Under the pieces are notes generated by a model that ran no database searches, was not told the origin of the DNA, and saw only the letters and a program-made list of their open reading frames with translations. The translations under genes were made by a program, and so were the position numbers. 41,882 bases of DNA, taken from an uncultured Clostridia bacterium (GTDB lineage Bacteria > Bacillota > Clostridia > TANB77 > CAG-508). This document shows, one piece after another, positions 4,035 through 20,362 of the stretch (its first letter is position 1; each line of letters starts with the position of its first letter). The DNA lies in contig CAKPPL010000001.1 of the NCBI GenBank assembly GCA_934177555.1, forward strand, positions 1 through 41,882, given 5' to 3'.

Positions 4035-4083
4035 TTACATCATACCTTTCAATTTTTTTCCAGTATTGTTATTATACCAGAAA

Positions 4084-4116
4084 AAAATAGAAAACACTAG
4101 TGTTTTCTATTTTTTA
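4084..4116. terminator. Bidirectional rho-independent terminator after the 1121-aa gene
   Basis: atagaaaacac / gtgttttctat 11-bp stem flanked by an A-run and a T-run. Confidence 0.7.
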
Positions 4117-4121
4117 TTTTA

Positions 4122-7100
4122 TTATGGATTTGTACATGCTCCACTAGAATTGAAATTATATGTCTTTCCATTTAATGTTATACTTTCATTCTTACACATT
4201 GCACCACTTTCTTTAAAGTAATACCATACTTTATTTAGTTGTAACCATTCTGATTTACACATTGCGCCACTATCTTTAAAATAATACCATATATTATTTA
4301 ATTGTAACCATTTTGATTTATACATATATCCATCATTATCAAAACGATACCATTTATATTCACCATTTGTCATAATTTCTGCCCAATTATTTTTTATCAT
4401 TGAACCATGTGTAAGTTTGTTTTTCTCCATATATTCTTTTCCATCTTTTAGATATGCTGATGTCATTGGAGCATTTCCTATATAATATTTATATTCTGAG
4501 TTCACTTTTCTCCAGCCTTCAAACATTGTTCCATCACTTTTAAAATAAAACCATGAATAATTACTATCACGTGCATTATTTGGTAGATAATGATCTCCTC
4601 CTGTTAATTTTTTACCATTTTCTGTATAGTAATACCATATTGTATAAGTTTTTCCATCTACATCTTTTTTTAGCATATACCAATTATACTTATATGTCGT
4701 TATATTAAATGTATAATTATCATTGTATTTTACCTTAATTTTATATCTTTCACCATTTGAAGCATCTGTATTCTCAGTAGATGTTGCATATTGAGTTCCA
4801 TCAATTATTTCTGGCTTTGAATAACCATAATAAACTTTTATTTTAATTCCTTTATAATCTATTTGTTCATTAGCAATGTATTCTGTTTTATCTGGTCCAG
4901 AATATAATTCTGCTAATACACATTCATTATTTAATTCTATAGTATTTGATTCTTTACTGTTTCCAACCAAATCATATGCTACTGCATATATACTAAATAC
5001 TTTTGAATTTTCTAATATATTTAATATCTTATTATTATTTATTTGTTCAGTTCCTTCTTTGTAAACTTCTTCATCAAATTTTTCATATTTTTCTGCTGTA
5101 TCTTTCTTATAATACCATTCTATTTTTTGTATTTTACTATCTTCATCTTTTCCAATTATATTTATTGACCCCTGTTCATCTTTTGTTTTTGGACTTGCTG
5201 GATTAGCTGTAATTGTAATCTCTGGTGCTGTTTTATCTATATTAGTTATAGTATATGAAACATAATTTCCTGTTTCATCTTCTGAACTTACTAATCTTGC
5301 GTACATTGTTTGCTTATTCTCTGTAAATGTTCTCGTCTCTACTTCTTCCCATATCTTGGAATCTAAACTTGTTTCTATTGTATATCCTAATTCTTTAGTA
5401 CTTGCTGTTAATGTTACACTTCCGTTTGTCCATTCTGTTATATCTGCTTTTATTTCTGCATTTGGTATACTTCCTGTTGTTGCTGTATATCCTTCAAATG
5501 TCTTCATATTTCCTGCTCTATCTTCTACCTGTATACTTATATTATATGTTTTCTCTGACTCTAATCCTGTAATTACATATAATGTTCCATATCTCCACTC
5601 TGACCATGTTGCTCCTTCATCAGTACTAAATCTATATCTATCTATTCCACTCTCTGCATACTCTTTTGTTTGCACTGCATCAAATGCTGTTGCATTTATT
5701 GTTATACTATTTGGTGTTGATTCTATTGATACTTCTACTTTCTCTGGATCTAATTTATCTATTACTGTTACATCATAACTTGTTGTTTTTCCACTTTGTC
5801 CTTCACTATCTACTAGTCTTGCATACATCGTTCCATTTGTTTTAAATGTTATTGGATTTGTTGTACTCCATTTCTCTCCGTCTGTACTTGTTTCTATTGT
5901 ATATCCTATTTTACTTGCACTTGCTGTTACTGTTATATCTTTATTTGTCCACTTCGTCTCACTTGCTTGGAATGTTATATTTCCTTCTGCTGTTGGTACT
6001 CCTTCTGTTGCTAAACTTCTCTCTACTTCTCTTATATTTCCTGCATTATCTTTTATTTGCACTTTTGTTTCATAACTTGTTGCTTGTAATAAATTTTTAA
6101 ATGTATATGAGCCTACTGTTTGCCATTCTGTATAGTTATTTCCTCCATCTATACTGAATCTATATCCTCCTATTCCACTCTTTCCATATTCTACTGTTGA
6201 ATTTCCATCATCTGTCGTTGCTTCTATTTTTATACTATTTGTTGTTACTGTTATTCTAGGATTTACTTCTTGTGGCTCTATTTTATCTATATTTGATACA
6301 TTATAACTTGCATAACTTCCTACTTGCCCTATACTATCTTTTAATCTTGCATACATTGTTCCTTTTTGTCCATATGTTTGTACATTTCCTTCTTCCCAAT
6401 CTGTATCTCCTGTTTTTGTTTCTATTGTGTATTTATCTCCTGTTGTTACTGTTGTTGTTACTACTACTCTATTATTTGTCCATCCACTTGGTTCTGACTT
6501 AAATACTACATTACTATCTTTTACTAGTCCTGGAACTGTTTCTGTTGTTACTCTTTCTTCTTTACTTCCTACATTTCCTGCTTCATCTTTTACTTCTACT
6601 TTTACATTATAATCTGTTGTTTGCTTTAAATCTATAAATGCATATGAAGAACTCTCTTGCCAGTCTGTCCATGTTACTCCTCTATCTTTACTAAATCTAT
6701 ATTCTTTTATTCCACTCTTTCCATAATCTTCTGTCTCTTCTCCGTCTTCACTTATTATTGATACTGTTATACTATGTGTTGTTTTTGTTATTGATGTATT
6801 TTTTATCACTGGACTTATTTTATCTATATTTTCTACTTTTCCTACTAAATCACTATTATCTTTTCCTTCTCCTGTTTCTACTACTTCTCCATTTGCTTTG
6901 TCTAATAATCTTACATATATTTTTTGATTTCTTTTTAATGTTATTGTTCCTGTATATTCTGTCCAGTCATCTACTTCTCCATCTTGTCCTTTTTTCTCTG
7001 TTTTATATTGGATTTCATGTAATTTTGTTGTCTCTACTATTGTTACTTTTGTAGATTCATTTGTCCATCCACTCGGCTCATATCCAAACATTACACTATT

Positions 7101-7487
7101 TCCTTGTAAGTTTCCTCCTGTATCAACATAATACATTCTACCACTTTCTGTATATGTTACTTTATATTGTTCTTTACTTACATCATATCCTAATTCATAT
7201 TTATCTTCTCCTATATATTTATCTAATTCTTTTTTAAAGTCATCTCTTGCACTTATTGTTAACATTGAATGTTGATCTTTCTCTAATGCTCCAACTACTG
7301 CTAAATTTAAGTTTTCTTTTTCTTGCTCTATTTCTGTTACTTCTTTTCCTTTTTGTGCTTGTTTTATTGTACTATTATCTCCTGTTAATGCTGCTATTCC
7401 TATTCCTGCTAATATTATCAATATTACTACTGTTACTGCTAGAGCTATTATGGTTATTCCTTTATTGTTTTGGCATTTGTTTTTCAT
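4122..7487 (-). CDS. Giant modular surface protein: prepilin-like N-terminus, four Ig/FN3-like repeat pairs, C-terminal cell-wall-binding (choline-binding type) repeats
   Basis: N-terminus NNKGITIIALAVTVVILIILAG has a basic leader, Gly, then a ~20-residue hydrophobic helix with Ala instead of Glu at +5. Four diverged ~190-aa repeats follow (SGWTN..GTMYARL..NIDK.P, then YGKSGI..YRFS..W..W...T.Y...V.D.AGN). The C-terminus has WYYF..SGAM..EW repeats. RBS AAAAAGGAGGAAC upstream; co-oriented 32 nt downstream of 7520..9796. Confidence 0.75.
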   Translation of the reverse strand: MKNKCQNNKGITIIALAVTVVILIILAGIGIAALTGDNSTIKQAQKGKEVTEIEQEKENLNLAVVGALEKDQHSMLTISARDDFKKELDKYIGEDKYELGYDVSKEQYKVTYTESGRMYYVDTGGNLQGNSVMFGYEPSGWTNESTKVTIVETTKLHEIQYKTEKKGQDGEVDDWTEYTGTITLKRNQKIYVRLLDKANGEVVETGEGKDNSDLVGKVENIDKISPVIKNTSITKTTHSITVSIISEDGEETEDYGKSGIKEYRFSKDRGVTWTDWQESSSYAFIDLKQTTDYNVKVEVKDEAGNVGSKEERVTTETVPGLVKDSNVVFKSEPSGWTNNRVVVTTTVTTGDKYTIETKTGDTDWEEGNVQTYGQKGTMYARLKDSIGQVGSYASYNVSNIDKIEPQEVNPRITVTTNSIKIEATTDDGNSTVEYGKSGIGGYRFSIDGGNNYTEWQTVGSYTFKNLLQATSYETKVQIKDNAGNIREVERSLATEGVPTAEGNITFQASETKWTNKDITVTASASKIGYTIETSTDGEKWSTTNPITFKTNGTMYARLVDSEGQSGKTTSYDVTVIDKLDPEKVEVSIESTPNSITINATAFDAVQTKEYAESGIDRYRFSTDEGATWSEWRYGTLYVITGLESEKTYNISIQVEDRAGNMKTFEGYTATTGSIPNAEIKADITEWTNGSVTLTASTKELGYTIETSLDSKIWEEVETRTFTENKQTMYARLVSSEDETGNYVSYTITNIDKTAPEITITANPASPKTKDEQGSINIIGKDEDSKIQKIEWYYKKDTAEKYEKFDEEVYKEGTEQINNNKILNILENSKVFSIYAVAYDLVGNSKESNTIELNNECVLAELYSGPDKTEYIANEQIDYKGIKIKVYYGYSKPEIIDGTQYATSTENTDASNGERYKIKVKYNDNYTFNITTYKYNWYMLKKDVDGKTYTIWYYYTENGKKLTGGDHYLPNNARDSNYSWFYFKSDGTMFEGWRKVNSEYKYYIGNAPMTSAYLKDGKEYMEKNKLTHGSMIKNNWAEIMTNGEYKWYRFDNDGYMYKSKWLQLNNIWYYFKDSGAMCKSEWLQLNKVWYYFKESGAMCKNESITLNGKTYNFNSSGACTNP

Positions 7488-7519
7488 AGTTCCTCCTTTT
7501 TTTTAATTTTTATATTTCA

Positions 7520-9796
7520 TTAATATTGATTTATATGATGTGCTACTCCAGAACTACTTGTAGCATTATCACTTGTTTTAACTGATGTTCCACTTATTTG
7601 TACAACTGGTCTAACAGGATAGTCTAATTCATCTTCAGCATTATGTGAAAAATATAAACCATTTCCATACAAATATATTCCTCCATTACGTAATCCAAAA
7701 TGTACATTTATGTTCAAACATGCAACATTACGTGATGCAACCCAATAAGATGGTCTATTACGTAGTGCCTTTGCTCCATCTCCAAAGTTTGTACTATTTA
7801 AATCTGTATCCCAATATGTTTCTGTAATAGTTAATTTTCCACTAGCTGTATTCGATGTATTATATGTTATACCACCTGAATATCCACTATATGTTTGACT
7901 CTTTTCTAGTGTACCTGAGCCAACACTTCCAGAGCTTATTCCTGCACCTTTTTCATATCTATATAAGTCAGGATAATATAAATTACTTGTATATGTCTTG
8001 GTTTTTCCGTATTGAGTTCCTTCATTTTTATAATTATCTCTAGCACTTTTTCCTGCTGTAGTTAACCATTTGTCGAAATCTTCATAATTTACGCTTCTTG
8101 CAGTTATTCCACTTCTACTATATAGAGTTTTACATATGTCATTCATTATATATACTCCATTATTATACCCAGATGCTCCTCTCAAATATAAGATTTCACT
8201 TGTTGTATCTCCAATTAAATCCATACTTCCATTACTATAAATTCTTAATACTTTCCACTTTAATGAATTTCTTTTAAAATCAACTCCGTTATTACTTGAA
8301 CCGGTTATTGATTTTGTAAGCTTACTTTTTGAATATGTAGTTTGTGCTGTAGAATCTGGACTATAGTCTATATAATCACCTATTTCTATTTTTGTTATTG
8401 GTGCTTCTGCAGATTTAGTAGGATTTGTAGCAGCATCTTTTACAATTACATAACATTTTTTACTTTGACTCATTGATTCAGAATATTTATATTCTGCTGT
8501 TCCAATTGATGTTTTTACCGTATTTTTTAATACTCCATCTATATAAAATTGATATTCTGATACCCCTGATGCATTATCTTGTCCTGTAGCAGTTAATGTT
8601 ACATTATATATTCCCTTTTTATATTCATTATTTACACTTATCTTACTTGATGGTGGTGTCTTATCTATATTTTTTACAACATATGATGCATGTTTTCCTG
8701 TTTGACCTGTACTGTCTATTAATCTTGCATACATTGTTCCATTTTGAGTAAATGTTATTGGATTAGTTGTTCCCCATGTTGTTCCATTAGTACTTGTTTG
8801 AAGTGTATATTCTCTTGTACTTGTACTTGCTGTTACTATTACATTTCCATTTGTCCAAGTTGTTTTATCAGCACTTAATGAAACATCAGGTATTGTTTCA
8901 GTTTTTACAACTTTAACTTCACTTATCATGTTTTCTCCATTTTTTACCCATATATAATATGTAGTTGATTGTGGTAAATTTGAAATTGTTTGAGTTATTA
9001 TTGATGTATTATTTGTTATAGTATTAAATGATGTTGGCATATCTGGAGTTTTAGATATTGCATATCCTGATATTCCTGTTTCATTATCATGTGCAATAAA
9101 TGTTATACTATTTGAAGTTGTTTTAGTATCATCTATAATTGGTGGTGTTGAGTCTTTCCAAACTGCATATAATGTTATATTTATTCCATCACTATATGTA
9201 GAGCCAGGTGTATATGATATTTCTTTTGATGTTGAAGCTAGTGACCATCCTAAGAAATCAAATCCTGTTTTAGTTGGTTCTTGTGATGTTATATTAGTAG
9301 GATAACCTACCCTATTATATTGTTCATTTGGAGCATTTTTTCCACTATTTGCAATATATGTTATTACATAATAATCATATGTTGGCTTTTCTGTTTCTTC
9401 TGATAATCCAATTATATATGAATTACCTGTATTTTCAAATATAACTTTTACAAATTTTGTTGCATTTTCTGTAGTTGCTATTGCTTTTGTTTTTTCTTCT
9501 TCTGTTACATTTTCATCAATATAATATTCTTTGGTGTGTTTGCTCATATATGTTTTAAAAGAATCCAATGTTAAGTTACTATTTGCTATTCCTTCATTCA
9601 TTTCCATTTGAGTATATGCTAATCTGATTACATTTTCTTCTTCAGCAGCTGTTTCAATTTTTGCACTTGATTGAGTTTTATCAAGTGTTCCATCATTTTT
9701 TAAAGTTCCTATAGAAATACCAGCCAATATTAATATTACTATTACTGTAATTGCTAGTGCTATTAGTGTTACTCCTGTTTCATATTTTTTCTTCAT
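7520..9796 (-). CDS. Modular prepilin-like surface protein with a C-terminal lectin-like (DGR-target-like) tip domain
   Basis: N-terminus ETGVTLIALAITVIVILILAGISIG. It shares stalk modules with the two paralogs. The C-terminal ~290 aa end in ..RPSYWVASRNV...DYPVRPVVQI, the same SYW.(G/A)S ... VRPV(I/V) frame as the DGR variable region at 41645-41755. Confidence 0.75.
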   Translation of the reverse strand: MKKKYETGVTLIALAITVIVILILAGISIGTLKNDGTLDKTQSSAKIETAAEEENVIRLAYTQMEMNEGIANSNLTLDSFKTYMSKHTKEYYIDENVTEEEKTKAIATTENATKFVKVIFENTGNSYIIGLSEETEKPTYDYYVITYIANSGKNAPNEQYNRVGYPTNITSQEPTKTGFDFLGWSLASTSKEISYTPGSTYSDGINITLYAVWKDSTPPIIDDTKTTSNSITFIAHDNETGISGYAISKTPDMPTSFNTITNNTSIITQTISNLPQSTTYYIWVKNGENMISEVKVVKTETIPDVSLSADKTTWTNGNVIVTASTSTREYTLQTSTNGTTWGTTNPITFTQNGTMYARLIDSTGQTGKHASYVVKNIDKTPPSSKISVNNEYKKGIYNVTLTATGQDNASGVSEYQFYIDGVLKNTVKTSIGTAEYKYSESMSQSKKCYVIVKDAATNPTKSAEAPITKIEIGDYIDYSPDSTAQTTYSKSKLTKSITGSSNNGVDFKRNSLKWKVLRIYSNGSMDLIGDTTSEILYLRGASGYNNGVYIMNDICKTLYSRSGITARSVNYEDFDKWLTTAGKSARDNYKNEGTQYGKTKTYTSNLYYPDLYRYEKGAGISSGSVGSGTLEKSQTYSGYSGGITYNTSNTASGKLTITETYWDTDLNSTNFGDGAKALRNRPSYWVASRNVACLNINVHFGLRNGGIYLYGNGLYFSHNAEDELDYPVRPVVQISGTSVKTSDNATSSSGVAHHINQY
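9297..9703. repeat. Left arm of a ~407-bp near-perfect inverted repeat (partner 10046..10452)
   Basis: Base x pairs with base 19749-x. Checked block by block, 9361-9600 is identical to the reverse complement of 10149-10388. I found about 5 mismatches over the whole arm. Confidence 0.9.
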
Positions 9797-9821
9797 TAGT
9801 TCCTCCCTTTTTTACACTTTA

Positions 9822-9850
9822 ATTATAATTCTTTTTCGCTTTTTTGTAAA
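9822..9850 (-). promoter_or_regulatory. Sigma-A-like promoter for 7520..9796 (and the downstream 4122..7487)
   Basis: On the minus strand: TTTACA, 17 nt, TATAAT, upstream of RBS AAGGGAGGAAC. Confidence 0.5.
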
Positions 9851-9895
9851 TATAATTTTTTTAATTATTATATAAATAAATTACTTATTATAGTA

Positions 9896-9924
9896 TTTAC
9901 AAATGACTTCAAATCAATTAAAAT
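9896..9924 (+). promoter_or_regulatory. Sigma-A-like promoter for 9953..12490
   Basis: TTTACA, 17 nt, TAAAAT, upstream of RBS AAAGGAGG. Confidence 0.45.
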
Positions 9925-9952
9925 AATTATATATAAAAGGAGGTATTTACAA

Positions 9953-12490
9953 ATGAAAAGTAATAAAGAAAAAGGTGTTACTTTAATTGCTTTAGCTATA
10001 ACTGTTATAGTAATTCTTATATTAGCAGGAATATCAATAGGTACTCTAAAAAATGATGGAACACTTGATAAAACTCAATCGAGTTCAAAAATTGAAACAG
10101 CTGCTGAAGAAGAAAATGTAATCAGACTAGCATATACTCAAATGGAAATGAATGAAGGAATAGCAAATAGTAACTTAACATTGGATTCTTTTAAAACATA
10201 TATGAGCAAACACACCAAAGAATATTATATTGATGAAAATGTAACAGAAGAAGAAAAAACAAAAGCAATAGCAACTACAGAAAATGCAACAAAATTTGTA
10301 AAAGTTATATTTGAAAATACAGGTAATTCATATATAATTGGATTATCAGAAGAAACAGAAAAGCCAACATATGATTATTATGTAATAACATATGATGCAA
10401 ATAGTGGAAAAAATGCTCCAAATGAACAATATAATAGGGTAGGTTATCCTACAATAATTGCTTCTGATGAACCAAATAAAGATAATTATAATTTTGAAGG
10501 TTGGGCAACATCTTCTTCATCAAAAGAAGTATCATATACACCAGGTTCTACATATAATGGTGGAATAGATATAACATTATATGCAGTTTGGAAAGATGCA
10601 ACACCACCAATTATAGATCTTGTTACAGCTACATCATCTAGTATAACGATACAAGCCCATGATAATGAAACAGGAATATCAGGATATGCAATATCAACCA
10701 CAAATGAAACACCAATAAAATTTATAAGTGTAACTAATCAAACATCTATTACACAAGTAATTTCTCCATTAACTCAATCAACTACATATTATTTATGGGT
10801 AAAAAATGGAGATGGCTTAATAAGTGAAGTGAAATCTATAAAAACAGAAACAATCCCTGATGTTTCATTAAGTGCTGATAAAACAACATGGACAAATGGA
10901 AATGTAGTCGTAACAGCTAAATCTAATGGTTCAACTACAGGATATACAATACAATCTTGTACAGATAATAAAAGTTGGAAAAATGCAAATTCTATAACAT
11001 TTATTCAAAATGGTACAATGTATGCTAGATTAATTGATAGTTCTGGACAAGTTGGAAAAACTGCATCATATAATGTAACAATAATTGATAAAACTGCACC
11101 AAAATCTGCTACACCAAAATTAAGTGCAACTACAAATAGTATTAAAACAGAAATAAGTACAGATGACTCAGCAGCAACTTCTCAATATGGAAAAAGTGGA
11201 ATATCTGGATATAGATTTAGTAGTAATAATGGTAGCTCTTATAGTGCTTGGCAATCTAAAGGCTCATATACATTTACAAGTTTAGCTCAAAAAACAAAAT
11301 ATAATATAGCAATTCAAATAAAAGATATAGCTGGTAATATAACAACTGTAACTAGTTCAACTACGACAGGCGCTGTACCTGGTGTAAGCTTATCTGCAAG
11401 CACAGGATCTTGGACAAATCAAAATTTAACTGTAAAAGCAACTGCAAATAGCAGTGGGTATACATTACAAACAAGTACAGATGGTAAAACTTGGGGAACA
11501 ACAAATCCTATAACATTTTCTCAAAATGGTAAAATGTATGCTAGATTAAAAGATAGTACTGGTCAAACCGGAAATCAAGCTTCTTATTCAGTAACAAATA
11601 TTGATAAATCTGCACCAAATAGCTTTACACCTTCAGCTGGTCTAATAACTGATGATGCTAGAATGGTTTTATCTGGTAGTACAACAGATAAAAGTGCAAC
11701 TACTCAATATGGATGTAGTGGAATATCTGGATATAGATTTAGTACTAATAATGGTAGTTCTTACACTGGATGGCAATCTAGTGGAAGATATAAGTTGTCT
11801 GATCTTCCATCAGCTACAACTTATAATATAAAAATGCAAGTAAAAGATAATGCTGGTAATATAACAACATCAAATGTTAAAACTATAACATTTATTTTAA
11901 GTAGTAATGGCTATACAAATACAAGTTTAACTAGTTCATATAATATTATGGAAGCTGTATATCCTTGTGGACGTGACTGGTTAGGAAATGGTTCTGGTGT
12001 TATGGTTCGTGACAATTATGGTAATAGAGTAAGTCTTGAAAATACTGCTACTTATTCAAGTTTTGCAAATTCAAGTAAAAGAAATAGAGCTGTTGGACTT
12101 ATATTTAATAATCAAATAAATGTAACTGATTACAAATATATGCATTTCTTGATTTGGTCTGATTTCTATATTAATAATAGCAAATATGCAAATAATGTAT
12201 ATGCTATTTCTGGAATGCAAGTAGGTATTTATAATGGGCTAAATTCAGATAAAAACTATTATGGGTATGGAGTAGTCCAAAGAGGACAATGCTTAGCATC
12301 TCAAGAATATGGAATTTATAGAAGTTCAGAAGGTTCTTCTCCAGAAGAAAAAGTTGGTACAAACATTCATACTTTAAATATACAAAATATATCTGGTAGC
12401 TACTGGGTTGGTACACATATTTATACTAATTTAAATGCATATGATGGATATAGCAGAGCCGGAGTTTATGCAGTATGGATGGAAAAATAA
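9953..12490 (+). CDS. Modular prepilin-like surface protein with a third, unassigned C-terminal tip domain
   Basis: N-terminus EKGVTLIALAITVIVILILAGISIG. Residues ~30-165 are almost identical to 7520..9796, followed by the same Ig/FN3-like modules. The last ~200 aa (..YPCGRDWLGNGSGVMV...YWVGTHIYTN...GVYAVWMEK) resemble neither paralog tip. Confidence 0.75.
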   Translation: MKSNKEKGVTLIALAITVIVILILAGISIGTLKNDGTLDKTQSSSKIETAAEEENVIRLAYTQMEMNEGIANSNLTLDSFKTYMSKHTKEYYIDENVTEEEKTKAIATTENATKFVKVIFENTGNSYIIGLSEETEKPTYDYYVITYDANSGKNAPNEQYNRVGYPTIIASDEPNKDNYNFEGWATSSSSKEVSYTPGSTYNGGIDITLYAVWKDATPPIIDLVTATSSSITIQAHDNETGISGYAISTTNETPIKFISVTNQTSITQVISPLTQSTTYYLWVKNGDGLISEVKSIKTETIPDVSLSADKTTWTNGNVVVTAKSNGSTTGYTIQSCTDNKSWKNANSITFIQNGTMYARLIDSSGQVGKTASYNVTIIDKTAPKSATPKLSATTNSIKTEISTDDSAATSQYGKSGISGYRFSSNNGSSYSAWQSKGSYTFTSLAQKTKYNIAIQIKDIAGNITTVTSSTTTGAVPGVSLSASTGSWTNQNLTVKATANSSGYTLQTSTDGKTWGTTNPITFSQNGKMYARLKDSTGQTGNQASYSVTNIDKSAPNSFTPSAGLITDDARMVLSGSTTDKSATTQYGCSGISGYRFSTNNGSSYTGWQSSGRYKLSDLPSATTYNIKMQVKDNAGNITTSNVKTITFILSSNGYTNTSLTSSYNIMEAVYPCGRDWLGNGSGVMVRDNYGNRVSLENTATYSSFANSSKRNRAVGLIFNNQINVTDYKYMHFLIWSDFYINNSKYANNVYAISGMQVGIYNGLNSDKNYYGYGVVQRGQCLASQEYGIYRSSEGSSPEEKVGTNIHTLNIQNISGSYWVGTHIYTNLNAYDGYSRAGVYAVWMEK
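10046..10452. repeat. Right arm of the ~407-bp inverted repeat (partner 9297..9703)
   Basis: See the left arm. Identity drops sharply inside 10046 (synonymous differences only) and outside 10452. Confidence 0.9.
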
Positions 12491-12496
12491 CAAAAC

Positions 12497-12529
12497 AAAA
12501 AAAGTGCTTCAATGAAGTACTTTTTTTTT
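12497..12529. terminator. Bidirectional rho-independent terminator between convergent genes
   Basis: aaagtgcttc-aat-gaagtacttt stem-loop followed by T9 and preceded by an A-run. Confidence 0.7.
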
Positions 12530-13957: not shown

Positions 13958-14722
13958 TTATTGATTTCTTATCTGTGTTCCATTATTATTTATCGAATAA
14001 TTGTCTTTATATATTAAATCAGAAACTTTTACTATTTCATATCCTTTAGATTTTATATTTTTTAACAGCATATCTAAACTATCAGCTGTATTTTTAGTTC
14101 CATTATGACTTAAAATAATAGATCCATTTTCTAATTTATTTTTTATCCTATTCCACATTTCATTCCCAGTTAGCCCATTATAATCTAATGTATCTAGATT
14201 CCAGTGTATTGGATAATAACCTGCTTCTTGAATTGATTTTATTACTATATTGTTGTATTCTCCATATGGTGTTCTATATAATTCTACTTTTTTGCCTGTT
14301 ATCTTTTCTATTTTACTTACACTCTGGTAAATTTCTTCTTTGTTTTTTTCCAAACTTAAATTATCTACATGTGGATGTGTATTACTATGGCTTCCTATCT
14401 CATGACCTGCATCACTTATTTTCTTTACTGCTTCAGGATATTTGTCTACCCATGTTCCTACCATAAAAAATGTTATTTGTACATTATTTTCTTTTAATAC
14501 TTCTAAAATTTTATCTATATCATCTGCATTCCATGCACAGTTCATTGTAAATGCAATCTTTTTCTCTTCAGTTTTTACATTATATATAGGTAATAATCTT
14601 TCTGTAGTTGAAACTTGAATTGATTTATTTGGACCCACCAAAGCTAATGCTACCAATACTGAAACTGTTAATATTGAAACAATATATGTTTGTATCTTTT
14701 CTTTATTAAATATTAAAAACAT
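13958..14722 (-). CDS. Polysaccharide deacetylase (NodB homology domain), PdaB/sporulation-type, membrane-anchored
   Basis: N-terminal TM helix. NodB motifs FTMNCAWNADD, ITFFMVGTW, GHEIGSHSNTHPH, YRTPYGEYN and ILSHNG. Confidence 0.8.
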   Translation of the reverse strand: MFLIFNKEKIQTYIVSILTVSVLVALALVGPNKSIQVSTTERLLPIYNVKTEEKKIAFTMNCAWNADDIDKILEVLKENNVQITFFMVGTWVDKYPEAVKKISDAGHEIGSHSNTHPHVDNLSLEKNKEEIYQSVSKIEKITGKKVELYRTPYGEYNNIVIKSIQEAGYYPIHWNLDTLDYNGLTGNEMWNRIKNKLENGSIILSHNGTKNTADSLDMLLKNIKSKGYEIVKVSDLIYKDNYSINNNGTQIRNQ

Positions 14723-18053: not shown

Positions 18054-18794
18054 TTATTTATTTGCTACAGCTTTAGCAATAAATCTCTTAGTAGCATGTG
18101 GATTACCATTTTCATAATAACATGTTATTAAAGTAATTTCTTTTCTCCCATTAGTTAATTGACTAGTACAAGAATTATCATATGGGTCAATAATATCAGT
18201 TTCATAGACAAAATAATCTAAAGTCTCTCCATTCACATCAGATATTTTTACAACATCTCCTATATTTATTTTAGGTAGATTACTAAAGAATTTATTATTT
18301 TTGTAATTGTGTCCTATTACAACCATATTTCCAACTTCATTAGGATATGAACCCCAATATCTATTTAAAGAGATTTTTAATAAAGCCGTAGAACTTGTTG
18401 ATAATATAGGATATTCTATATTTAAACTAGGAATATTTAATTTTCCAATAATATTATATGTTTCTCCATTACTCGCAGTATATGAAATCTCTTTTGTACT
18501 TTTCTCTTCTTGTTCACTAATCTGTTGCTGTTCAGGCTCATTTTCTATTTCTTCTGTTTCTTCGTGATTATTTTCTTCTTGATTTTCAGCTAATTCAACA
18601 ACAGGTATATTATCACTAATATTTTCTTGTTCTTTTGCAACTTCTGTTACATCATTAGCATATGTTTTAAAAGAAAATGCTATATAAATACTAATGATAA
18701 TTAATGGGAAAAATATTACAATAATTGGTACTGAAATTTTCTTTTTTCTGGTCTTTGATTCATTATTATCATCAATTTGTATTATTTGATTCAT
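18054..18794 (-). CDS. Sortase-family transpeptidase, membrane-anchored with an acidic linker
   Basis: N-terminal TM helix and a Glu-rich linker. Catalytic-domain motifs VVIGHNYKN (His) and ITLITCYYE (TLxTC Cys). Class not assigned. Confidence 0.8.
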   Translation of the reverse strand: MNQIIQIDDNNESKTRKKKISVPIIVIFFPLIIISIYIAFSFKTYANDVTEVAKEQENISDNIPVVELAENQEENNHEETEEIENEPEQQQISEQEEKSTKEISYTASNGETYNIIGKLNIPSLNIEYPILSTSSTALLKISLNRYWGSYPNEVGNMVVIGHNYKNNKFFSNLPKINIGDVVKISDVNGETLDYFVYETDIIDPYDNSCTSQLTNGRKEITLITCYYENGNPHATKRFIAKAVANK

Positions 18795-18805
18795 AAACTC
18801 TCCTT

Positions 18806-18840
18806 AAAAAAAGAGAAAGTAGACACCTACTTCCTCTTTT
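18806..18840 (-). terminator. Stem-loop between the LPXTG gene and the sortase gene (terminator/attenuator)
   Basis: On the minus strand: agaggaagtag-gtgt-ctactttctct followed by T7, then RBS AAGGAGAG of the sortase gene. Confidence 0.55.
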
Positions 18841-18847
18841 GAGGACT

Positions 18848-20362
18848 CTATATGCCTCTTAATTTATTATATTTATTATAAATTATTACAGATGTGCCTA
18901 TTAATAAGATTATTGCAAAAGCTAAACCAACACCTATTCCTGTTTGTGGTAACTTTCCTGTTGCTGTTGTATTATCTCCTTTTGAAGTACTTGGTTTAAC
19001 AGTACTATCTCCTGAATTATTATTACCATTAGATGTGTTGCTATTATTGTTGCTTCCATTACTTGTATCTGTTATATCTCCATTTGCATACACAAAATCT
19101 TCACTATTATATTGAATTGTTAATGCTGGGCAACTTAATACTGCTACATTACCAGCTGTATCTTTGATGCTTCCACCAGAAAAGTCTACTGTAGTCATAG
19201 TTCCTTTATCTGTACTTTTTACAGTATATATATATGTAATTTTATCTCCTGCAACAGTTCCTTCTGTTACTTTTATATTTTTACCATCTCCAAATTTTAT
19301 TGTTAGAGTAGGTACTTCTGTTCCTTGTATATTTTCACTAAATGTAACATTTATTACTAATTTTGCTCCTGCAGGAACAATATACATACTTCTATTTGTA
19401 TCTCTATTATACTTCATTACACTTGCATATGTAACTTGTATACTTTTAACAATAGGTGATGTAATGTCTGTACCTACATCTGCTTTATCCCAATTTGCAA
19501 TATAGTCAAAAGGAATTTTATTAGTTTCTGCATATTCTTTTGATGTCATTCCATCATTACCATAAATTGTTAGATTATCACAATCTCTAAATGCTCCTAT
19601 ACCAATACTTACAACACTATCTGGAATTAATACTTTTTTTAAGTTTTTGCAACTTCCAAAAGCACCATAACCATATAAATTTTCATATTTTCCCTCAATA
19701 GTTGTTACTGAATCTGGTAAAATAACACTTGTAAGTCCACTACATCCCTCAAAAGTAGACTCTGCTATTTTAGTAAGATTTTTTGAAAGAGTTAATGATT
19801 TTAACCCACTACATTCTCTAAATGCTGCTGTACCTATAGTTGTCACACTATCTGGAATTACTAAGCTCTTTAATCCTGTACATCCCTCAAAAGCATATTC
19901 GTCTATTGAAGTAATATGATTTGAAAAGTCTATTGATGTTACTCCAGAACATCCATAAAATGAAGATCTTCCTATTTTTGTTACACTATCTGGAAGTGTT
20001 AGACTTTTTAAACCTGTACAATTATAAAATGCATAATTTCCTATAGTTGTTATTGTATTTGGTATTGTAATATTTGTAATTCCAGCACAATCTTTAAATG
20101 CTCCTTTTATACTACTTCCCTCTAATAGTGAAATTACTGTTTTTCCATCAATAGTAGATGGTATTGTAACTGCACCTATTTTTCCTGTTGTTTTACAGTA
20201 TAATTCTATAACATTATTATTGGAATCTAATTGATAACTCCATTCTATACCTTGCTCTGTATCTGAATATGTGTATTCTGTAGCAGCATTTGAAATATTT
20301 GGTATAAAAAATAATACTATTCCAACAAATAAAATCATAATTAAATATTTCGTTTTTCTCAT
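18848..20362 (-). CDS. Cell-wall-anchored leucine-rich-repeat (BspA-type) surface protein with an Ig-like domain and LPXTG sorting signal
   Basis: Signal peptide. Repeated IP.SVT.IG..AF..C.GL.S units. C-terminal LPQTG, then a hydrophobic helix and a KLRG basic tail. Confidence 0.85.
   Translation of the reverse strand: MRKTKYLIMILFVGIVLFFIPNISNAATEYTYSDTEQGIEWSYQLDSNNNVIELYCKTTGKIGAVTIPSTIDGKTVISLLEGSSIKGAFKDCAGITNITIPNTITTIGNYAFYNCTGLKSLTLPDSVTKIGRSSFYGCSGVTSIDFSNHITSIDEYAFEGCTGLKSLVIPDSVTTIGTAAFRECSGLKSLTLSKNLTKIAESTFEGCSGLTSVILPDSVTTIEGKYENLYGYGAFGSCKNLKKVLIPDSVVSIGIGAFRDCDNLTIYGNDGMTSKEYAETNKIPFDYIANWDKADVGTDITSPIVKSIQVTYASVMKYNRDTNRSMYIVPAGAKLVINVTFSENIQGTEVPTLTIKFGDGKNIKVTEGTVAGDKITYIYTVKSTDKGTMTTVDFSGGSIKDTAGNVAVLSCPALTIQYNSEDFVYANGDITDTSNGSNNNSNTSNGNNNSGDSTVKPSTSKGDNTTATGKLPQTGIGVGLAFAIILLIGTSVIIYNKYNKLRGI

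Follow-up and report, generated by a model that had tools for sequence, protein, structure and literature searches.

A near-perfect inverted repeat was found inside the 5' coding regions of two divergent surface-protein genes in a 41,882-nt (41.9 kb) stretch of DNA (hereafter the window; G+C content 26.7%) from an uncultured Clostridia bacterium. The genes were told apart by their leaders, K (MKKKYET) for the left gene and S (MKSNKEK) for the right gene, and "gene position" denotes the nucleotide count within either of them. Comparison among related metagenome contigs indicated that the two arms of the repeat very probably undergo gene conversion, and that the 342-bp core between them, which holds the promoter-like sites, start codons and leaders of both genes, is probably inverted occasionally.

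Architecture of the inverted repeat and its core

A sequence-only reading of the window, which preceded this analysis, had proposed that positions 9297-9703 are the reverse complement of 10046-10452, with position x pairing with 19749-x, and this was confirmed over the whole 407 nt. The description as near-perfect held, while the number of mismatches was six (9354, 9355, 9622, 9664, 9668 and 9703) and not about five as estimated before, giving an identity of 98.5%. The longest exact stretch between the two arms of the window was 266 nt, and each arm occupied the same codons of its gene (Table 1). Around the arms, an ungapped inverted duplication of 827 nt was recognized, which encloses the 407-nt tract and takes in the promoter regions. 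The edges of the inner tract were abrupt, and the identity fell to ~70% on the core side and to ~65-85% distally. The near-perfect tract is a sharply bounded island in an older, diverged inverted duplication. A small palindrome, GTAGG-ATAA-CCTAC, which encodes VGYPT and was flagged as terminator-like, was located exactly at the distal arm edges (9297-9310 and 10439-10452), and this position is probably a coincidence.

The core provides the sole intergenic DNA between the K and S genes. As the sequence-only reading had stated, both start codons (9796 on the minus strand for the left gene, 9953 on the plus strand for the right gene), both ribosome-binding sites (RBSs) and both named hexamer pairs were located there, the promoters being predictions. 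The 5' untranslated region (UTR) of each cassette would be ~20 nt long. Promoter-like matches as a class numbered 32 in this AT-rich region, compared to 40 +/- 6 in shuffles, so there was no enrichment, and the two promoter calls depend only on where they lie, in the one gap between the genes. The two upstream regions aligned with each other with a score that was reached by 12 of 2000 shuffles, which suggested that the original duplication included the promoter; judging from this alignment, a single ancestral promoter gave rise to both, and they have since diverged, with -10 boxes of TATAAT and TAAAAT. A 14-mer, GTATTTACAAATGA, occurred twice upstream of the right gene (9893-9906 and 9943-9956, 50 nt apart); one copy holds the -35-like TTTACA and the other covers the RBS-to-ATG spacer and the start codon. 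No RNA family was detected in 9200-10550 with Rfam at E <= 1.

After the leader, the same hydrophobic segment was present in both proteins (G/VTLIALAITVIVILILAGISIGT, the slash marking the pilin-like site), and it resembles a prepilin-methylation segment. At this site, KG/VTLIAL, the Gly was present and Ala was found in place of Glu at +5. The PF07963 N_methyl family matched the N-terminus of the right protein with E 8e-4 and 19.3 bits, below the cut-off of 21.2. A Pfam scan was carried out on the main open reading frames (ORFs) of the window of at least 80 aa, taken as the longest ORF at each locus with shorter nested ORFs on the opposite strand left out, and neither a prepilin peptidase nor pilus assembly genes were found among them.

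Homogenization of the arms among strain lineages

The related sequences were European Nucleotide Archive (ENA) metagenome contigs found by exact-protein look-up, and 12 further contigs with the K/S locus were recovered in this way, their sources being Hadza, Nepal and other cohorts. Scans of the left protein against genome_contigs (one genome per species) and JGI metagenome_contigs gave no relative, so the ENA contigs constitute all of the comparative data. Five strain lineages were used for the population comparison of arm and leader.

Within the window, the divergence between K and S differed sharply from zone to zone. In codons 8-31 the proportion of synonymous differences (pS) was 0.90 with identical amino acids; in the arm (codons 32-167) the synonymous divergence (dS) was 0.05; in the next 98 codons dS rose to 0.40 with a nonsynonymous divergence (dN) of 0.27. 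A third close paralogue, P0004 (L005-L008; 813 aa, leader MQKMNK), was found unpaired at another locus in the samples of L002 and L003. It carries the same N-terminal module with 89% nucleotide identity over the arm region, was not homogenized, and showed an arm pS of 0.26-0.27 to either copy. Because of this distance to both copies, protein constraint alone does not explain the 98.5% nucleotide identity of the arms, and on these values only the head-to-head pair has been homogenized. The nearest more distant homologue (P0005, L096), on a 1.57-Mb long-read contig, was likewise one gene without a paired inverted copy. Since both relatives are unpaired, the paired inverted architecture is, as far as these sequences indicate, not a family-wide feature.

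Among the five lineages, the arm (gene positions 94-500) contained 3-21 differences between K and S within a genome (mean 9.8), compared to a mean of 10.4 between K copies and 10.8 between S copies of different lineages. In the leader (gene positions 1-93), by comparison, K and S differed at 26-27 positions within a genome, and only 0-1 (K-K) and 0-2 (S-S) differences were counted between lineages. In this way, the orthology signal was absent from the arm, and the leader and body segments stayed gene-specific. The arm variants were arranged as a mosaic, with patches at gene positions 255-299 and 442-443 among others, and the edges of the identical tract varied by strain, the inner edge lying at gene position 85-94 and the outer edge at 456-500. 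Exact shared arm stretches of 74-357 nt were found across strains. This combination of a within-genome arm identity far above that of the flanks, no arm orthology and mosaic patches is that of concerted evolution, and it bears out the suggestion of the sequence-only reading that the arms recombine with each other. In the 757-aa left alleles (L001, L009-L014), the right-type LVTATSSSITIQ replaced DTKTTSNSITFI at residues ~222-233; this patch corresponds to window positions ~9100-9135, distal to the arm, which suggested that gene conversion reaches past the 407-nt tract. By these comparisons, the arms are one recombining allele pool across the five lineages, with recurrent homologous exchange and variable end points.

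Orientation of the core in related contigs

Both orientations of the core were present among the contigs. In nine sequences that span both arms (the window, L015, L011, L012, L013, L014, L098, L002 and L003), the arrangement was the normal one, in which the K leader precedes the left body and the S leader precedes the right body. In four contigs, which belong to two lineages and were produced by two assemblers (L001, L004, L009 and L010), the core was flipped: the left body, with the 1121-aa gene behind it, is preceded by the S promoter and the MKSNKEK leader, and MKKKYET faces away. These contigs are from the ENA records ERZ4560076 (L001), ERZ4562116 (L004), ERZ27287289 (L009) and ERZ27287296 (L010), and the normal L002 is from ERZ4561877. 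The prediction that recombination between the arms would invert the core thus has four contigs in its favor, in so far as they are not products of assembly error.

L001 (metaSPAdes) and L009 and L010 (both MEGAHIT) were identical over 2950 nt of left body and unlike every normal lineage, so by sequence they are one lineage in three samples and two assemblers. If the 4 flipped calls among 13 were random errors, the probability that all three contigs of one lineage were included would be 10/715 = 0.014. Outside the core, the fourth contig, L004, agreed with the normal L002 and L003 at all but 1 of 8222 nt. Its S-leader gene carried S-type markers as far as gene position 231 and K-type markers from 264 onward, a private single-nucleotide polymorphism (SNP) was located at 234, and the crossover was mapped to an identical interval of 29-32 nt (235-263). 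This interval does not reach the length of a read, nor that of k = 33 or 55, which makes it hard to construct a simple repeat-collapse artefact that starts from an L002-like genome. For the L001 lineage, the crossover fell conservatively within gene positions 134-441, or within 134-206 if the lineage descended from its nearest relative L013; only under the assumption of such an L013-like ancestor is it separate from the crossover of L004. The flipped SPAdes contigs had a low coverage of 3.9-4.6x, and normal contigs spanning both arms were obtained at like coverage (L013, 4.3x; L002, 5.1x). Given these data, the flipped molecules are likely to be real.

The ends of the flipped contigs were also inspected. 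L009 and L010 (MEGAHIT, k141) crossed the whole arm of the left body and ended 167 and 82 nt into the other arm. A symmetric repeat that is exact over more than k nucleotides would not produce such ends, and this is a hint of divergence, truncation or poor coverage of the other arm in that lineage. An explanation of the contig ends as k-mer vertices was rejected: L001 ends 55 nt past the last arm-specific site, and L004, L009 and L010 fit no single k.

Synonymous recoding of the signal-anchor codons

Residues 8-31 of the two proteins (GVTLIALAITVIVILILAGISIGT; 9704-9775 vs 9974-10045) are encoded differently, and 19 of the 24 codons differed between K and S. Independent draws from the codon usage of the window gave a mean of 11.0 differing codons and P(>=19) = 7e-4, in a post hoc test on one short segment. 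The S copy was the odd one out, with a pS of 0.68 to the third paralogue and 0.90 to K, compared to 0.33 between K and the third paralogue. Strand-biased mutation was considered as the source of the A/T third-position swaps and was rejected, since the direction of the swaps reverses in mid-segment. These results suggested that there may be selection for DNA dissimilarity near the centre of the palindrome, which could limit hairpins or keep conversion out of the core.

Genes on either side of the core

The order of parts was the same in both paralogues: leader, hydrophobic segment, the module of residues 32-167, a Flg_new (Listeria-Bacteroides) repeat and Ig/FN3-like units. The name "adhesin" used in the sequence-only reading was a guess, and the proteins are better described as pilin-like, Flg_new-repeat surface proteins. 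No match was found for the left protein in the Protein Data Bank (PDB) by sequence, and a phage database gave a single match to the right protein, 73 aa in Flg_new. The AlphaFold model of the common N-terminal 175 aa was of low confidence (pLDDT 56). The 1121-aa gene, placed downstream of the left body by the earlier reading, was found there with its own RBS (Table 1), and it is probably co-transcribed with the left gene.

The two bodies differed in their variation among strains when window positions 7520-9296 and 10453-12490 were compared with loci L002, L011 and L013. The left body was hypervariable, with alleles of 758, 757 and 829 aa and 16-57 differences in 260 nt, and the 829-aa allele had a different C-terminal half. 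The right body was almost invariant (0-2 differences). Within the right gene, an internal tandem duplication of Ig/FN3-like units was present at 10940-11890, with a period of ~516-522 nt and 76-85% identity; the left gene has similar Ig/FN3-like units, and this gives rise to the secondary inverted repeats I2-I4.

The K/S pair is surrounded by housekeeping and sporulation genes. A genome scan with MreB gave a best match of 86% identity, in a metagenome-assembled genome (MAG) from the Hadza gut, and thus placed the bacterium no more closely than among uncultured Clostridia. The region is also rich in surface genes, with a sortase and a BspA-type leucine-rich repeat (LRR) protein ~8 kb to the right (18054-20362). 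In L011 (3707-5844) and L012, at the place of window positions ~13958-14722, a polysaccharide deacetylase gene was cut to 168 aa, and the shortened gene is adjoined by several genes, one of which encodes a 499-aa large serine recombinase (Resolvase/Recombinase/Zn_ribbon_recom). This insert resembles a mobile-element insertion, and the core is normal in that lineage.

Table 1. Positions of the inverted repeat, the core and the adjoining genes in the window
Feature	Position	Strand	Remark
Left arm, near-perfect inverted repeat, codons 32-167 of the left (K-leader) gene	9297..9703	-	407 nt, 6 mismatches
Right arm, near-perfect inverted repeat, codons 32-167 of the right (S-leader) gene	10046..10452	+	407 nt
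Putative invertible core, both leader-coding segments and the 156-bp intergenic region	9704..10045		342 bp; reversed relative to the left body in L001, L004, L009, L010
Left half of the older diverged inverted duplication	9000..9826	-	ungapped, 827 nt, 86% overall
Right half of the older diverged inverted duplication	9923..10749	+	ungapped, 827 nt, 86% overall
Left gene codons 1-31, MKKKYET + GVTLIALAITVIVILILAGISIGT, pilin-like signal anchor	9704..9796	-	27 nt differences from right copy, residues 8-31 identical
Right gene codons 1-31, MKSNKEK + GVTLIALAITVIVILILAGISIGT, signal anchor	9953..10045	+	synonymously recoded
Left-gene promoter-like site, TTTACA-17-TATAAT	9850-9822	-	consensus match only
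Right-gene promoter-like site, TTTACA-17-TAAAAT	9896..9924	+	consensus match only
Left-gene RBS, GGGAGGAA	9800-9807	-	
Right-gene RBS, AAGGAGG	9937-9943	+	
Left gene, 758 aa	7520..9796	-	pilin-like N-terminus, Flg_new repeat, Ig/FN3-like repeats
Right gene, 845 aa	9953..12490	+	paralogue of the left gene
Terminator-like hairpin 3' of the right gene	12497-12527		strong
1121-aa gene	4122..7487	-	pilin-like N-terminus, C-terminal choline-binding repeats; 32 nt downstream of the left gene
RBS of the 1121-aa gene	7492-7498	-	
Terminator-like hairpin 3' of the 1121-aa gene	4081-4110		

Discussion

On balance, we think it probable that the K/S locus arose long ago when a surface-protein gene and its promoter were duplicated head to head, and that the ~400-bp tract encoding the common N-terminal module (codons 32-167) has since recombined repeatedly between the copies by RecA-type homologous recombination. 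Nonreciprocal events (gene conversion) would hold the arms at 95-99% identity, and reciprocal events (crossovers) would invert the 342-bp core. The core would then consist of two complete, diverged cassettes, in each of which a promoter, a short 5' UTR and an RBS precede 31 leader codons, and a flip would exchange these cassettes between the two-gene unit (758-aa and 1121-aa proteins) and the single 845-aa gene. The earlier statement that no invertase gene lies nearby agreed with the Pfam scan, in which no invertase or recombinase domain (PF00239, PF00589, PF07508, Piv-type) was found in the scanned ORFs. General homologous recombination is favored because the locus combines this lack of a recombinase with a 400-bp substrate, variable tract edges and mosaic patches. 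On a flip, the pre-proteins change only in residues 2-7 and in 1-2 arm residues. If the leader is cleaved at the pilin-like G/V site, which removes residues 2-7, the mature proteins would be essentially the same after inversion, and a switch would therefore alter the strength or control of each body and not the identity of the protein.

Several observations weigh against this explanation. All four flipped contigs are from short-read assemblies and stop 82-252 nt into the opposite arm, and the reciprocal junction (K leader with right body) was not found in the collected contigs or proteins. The contigs that span both arms share one orientation in 9 of 9 cases, which means that flipping, if real, is rare or selected against in most lineages. 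A short-loop inverted repeat with exact stretches of 266-357 nt can be walked the wrong way by short-read assemblers. The crossover intervals 235-263 and 134-441 overlap, so that one fixed site is formally possible, and the promoter calls are consensus matches in a region of 27% GC without enrichment of such matches. The broken ends, the missing reciprocal junction and the uniform orientation of the spanning contigs are what would be expected if conversion and shared constraint kept the arms alike, the core (almost) never inverted and the flipped contigs were mis-joins; the exact repeats of 74-357 nt, which exceed common k-mer sizes, and the low coverage of the flipped SPAdes contigs point in the same direction. 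We nevertheless regard such a history of concerted evolution without inversion as unlikely. The junction of L004 lies in a 29-32-nt interval with arm-specific flanks and a private SNP, and k-mers of at least 33 across it cannot derive from an L002-like genome. In addition, metaSPAdes and MEGAHIT gave identical sequences for the L001/L009/L010 lineage from three samples, and samples of equally low coverage yielded normal spanning contigs. A random mis-walk also predicts "normal but broken" contigs as often as flipped ones, and there were none.

Inversion could also be brought about by a recombinase encoded elsewhere that acts at a short site within the arms, with the long identity as a side effect of conversion. 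Trans-acting invertases are known, as the global invertases of Bacteroides and RecV of Clostridioides difficile act in trans, and the overlap of the two mapped crossover intervals would be compatible with a single site. Invertible regions without a nearby recombinase gene also exist (Milman et al., PMC9881135). This reading is considered very improbable: the scanned ORFs of the window contain no recombinase, the end points of arm boundaries and conversion patches vary, a site-specific enzyme has no need of 400 bp of identity, and the L001 crossover at 134-206, if derived from L013, does not overlap the interval of L004. Recurrent homologous recombination with occasional inversion may, in a stronger form, amount to an adaptive phase-variation switch, in which the cassettes differ in strength or regulation, flips are appreciably frequent within populations and selection favors bet-hedging between the 758-aa and 1121-aa pair and the 845-aa protein. 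Both orientations within one near-clonal lineage (L002/L003 vs L004, 1 SNP in 8.2 kb), a core that is conserved and kept distinct in all strains, leader codons that differ beyond random and could insulate the cassettes, and the different -10 boxes (TATAAT vs TAAAAT) speak for this form. Against it stand the constant orientation in four of five lineages and the single orientation of the spanning contigs, which agree better with rare flips than with rapid phase variation, and the promoters, which as diverged copies of one promoter are of similar quality, so that we doubt a frequent switch of this kind. A programmed, recombinase-free swap of expression cassettes, with the arms maintained as substrates, the core insulated by selected recoding and the amount rather than the identity of protein varied, is a speculative and rather doubtful extension of the same idea.

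Loci of this kind may have been overlooked. The usual searches, which look for short repeats with an invertase or for asymmetric pairs of gene and pseudogene, would miss symmetric, invertase-free loci with 400-bp repeats, and short-read assemblers tend to break or mis-orient them. Provided that the flipped contigs are real, heritable regulatory variants of surface proteins would arise by general recombination in uncultured gut Clostridia of non-industrial populations, and the symmetric intermediate from which gene-altering inversions have been proposed to originate would have a living example in this locus. The beyond-random divergence of the signal-anchor codons hints at selection on DNA dissimilarity itself, which is unusual.

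Among known systems, site-specific invertons such as fimS/FimBE, Hin, the Piv-driven tfpQ/I pilin switch of Moraxella and the invertons of Bacteroides depend on short repeats (~10-50 bp), a fixed site and a dedicated, usually adjacent recombinase. The K/S locus resembles them in having a small segment with promoters or gene ends between inverted repeats beside surface-structure genes, and differs from them in its 407-nt repeats with strain-variable edges and in the lack of a recombinase in the scanned ORFs. In Salmonella, recombination between the inverted copies tufA and tufB gives both conversion and inversion, the copies being whole housekeeping genes hundreds of kb apart. The likeness lies in homologous recombination between inverted copies that would yield both homogenization and inversion of the segment between them; unlike tufA/tufB, the K/S pair homogenizes only a 407-bp internal tract, and the inverted segment would be a 342-bp regulatory core.

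The closest mechanistic analogue is the sap (S-layer) locus of Campylobacter fetus, in which recA-dependent nested inversion reportedly takes place in the conserved 5' regions of sapA homologues. In both loci, opposed paralogous surface-protein genes have several hundred bp of conserved 5' coding sequence as inverted repeat (here 407 nt, codons 32-167), and the segment between these regions holds the promoter or, here, the promoter-like sites. In C. fetus the crossovers are reportedly not confined to one site and no dedicated invertase takes part; for the K/S locus both are probable, and the inversion was seen in contigs only (4 flipped, 9 normal). In C. fetus, a segment of ~6 kb with one outward promoter reportedly inverts, one of up to ~8 cassettes is expressed and the displayed protein changes. 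The 342-bp K/S core, by contrast, carries two divergent cassettes of promoter-like site, RBS and leader in place of a single promoter, both genes are complete and presumably always expressed, and only the pairing of cassette and gene body would change. Among the references of PMC1950947 are two papers on the sap inversion, Dworkin & Blaser 1997 (PNAS) and Tu et al. 2001 (J Bacteriol).

The K/S locus can also be compared with the gene-altering inversions described by Milman, Yelin & Kishony (2023, PMC9881135), among which pilin genes belong to the enriched families. It shares with these loci the long, close inverted repeats inside a pair of neighbouring coding sequences and an orientation that varies within a species, here according to the assembled contigs. 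The strongest predictor in that study was asymmetry, that is, a full gene beside a promoterless partial copy, and inversion altered the downstream part of the coding sequence. Unlike this, both K and S are full length with their own predicted promoter and start, and the product would be essentially unchanged by a flip. The origin hypothesized for such loci is an inverted duplication in which one copy later loses transcription (PMC9881135), and by analogy the K/S locus resembles the symmetric ancestral state of that hypothesis.

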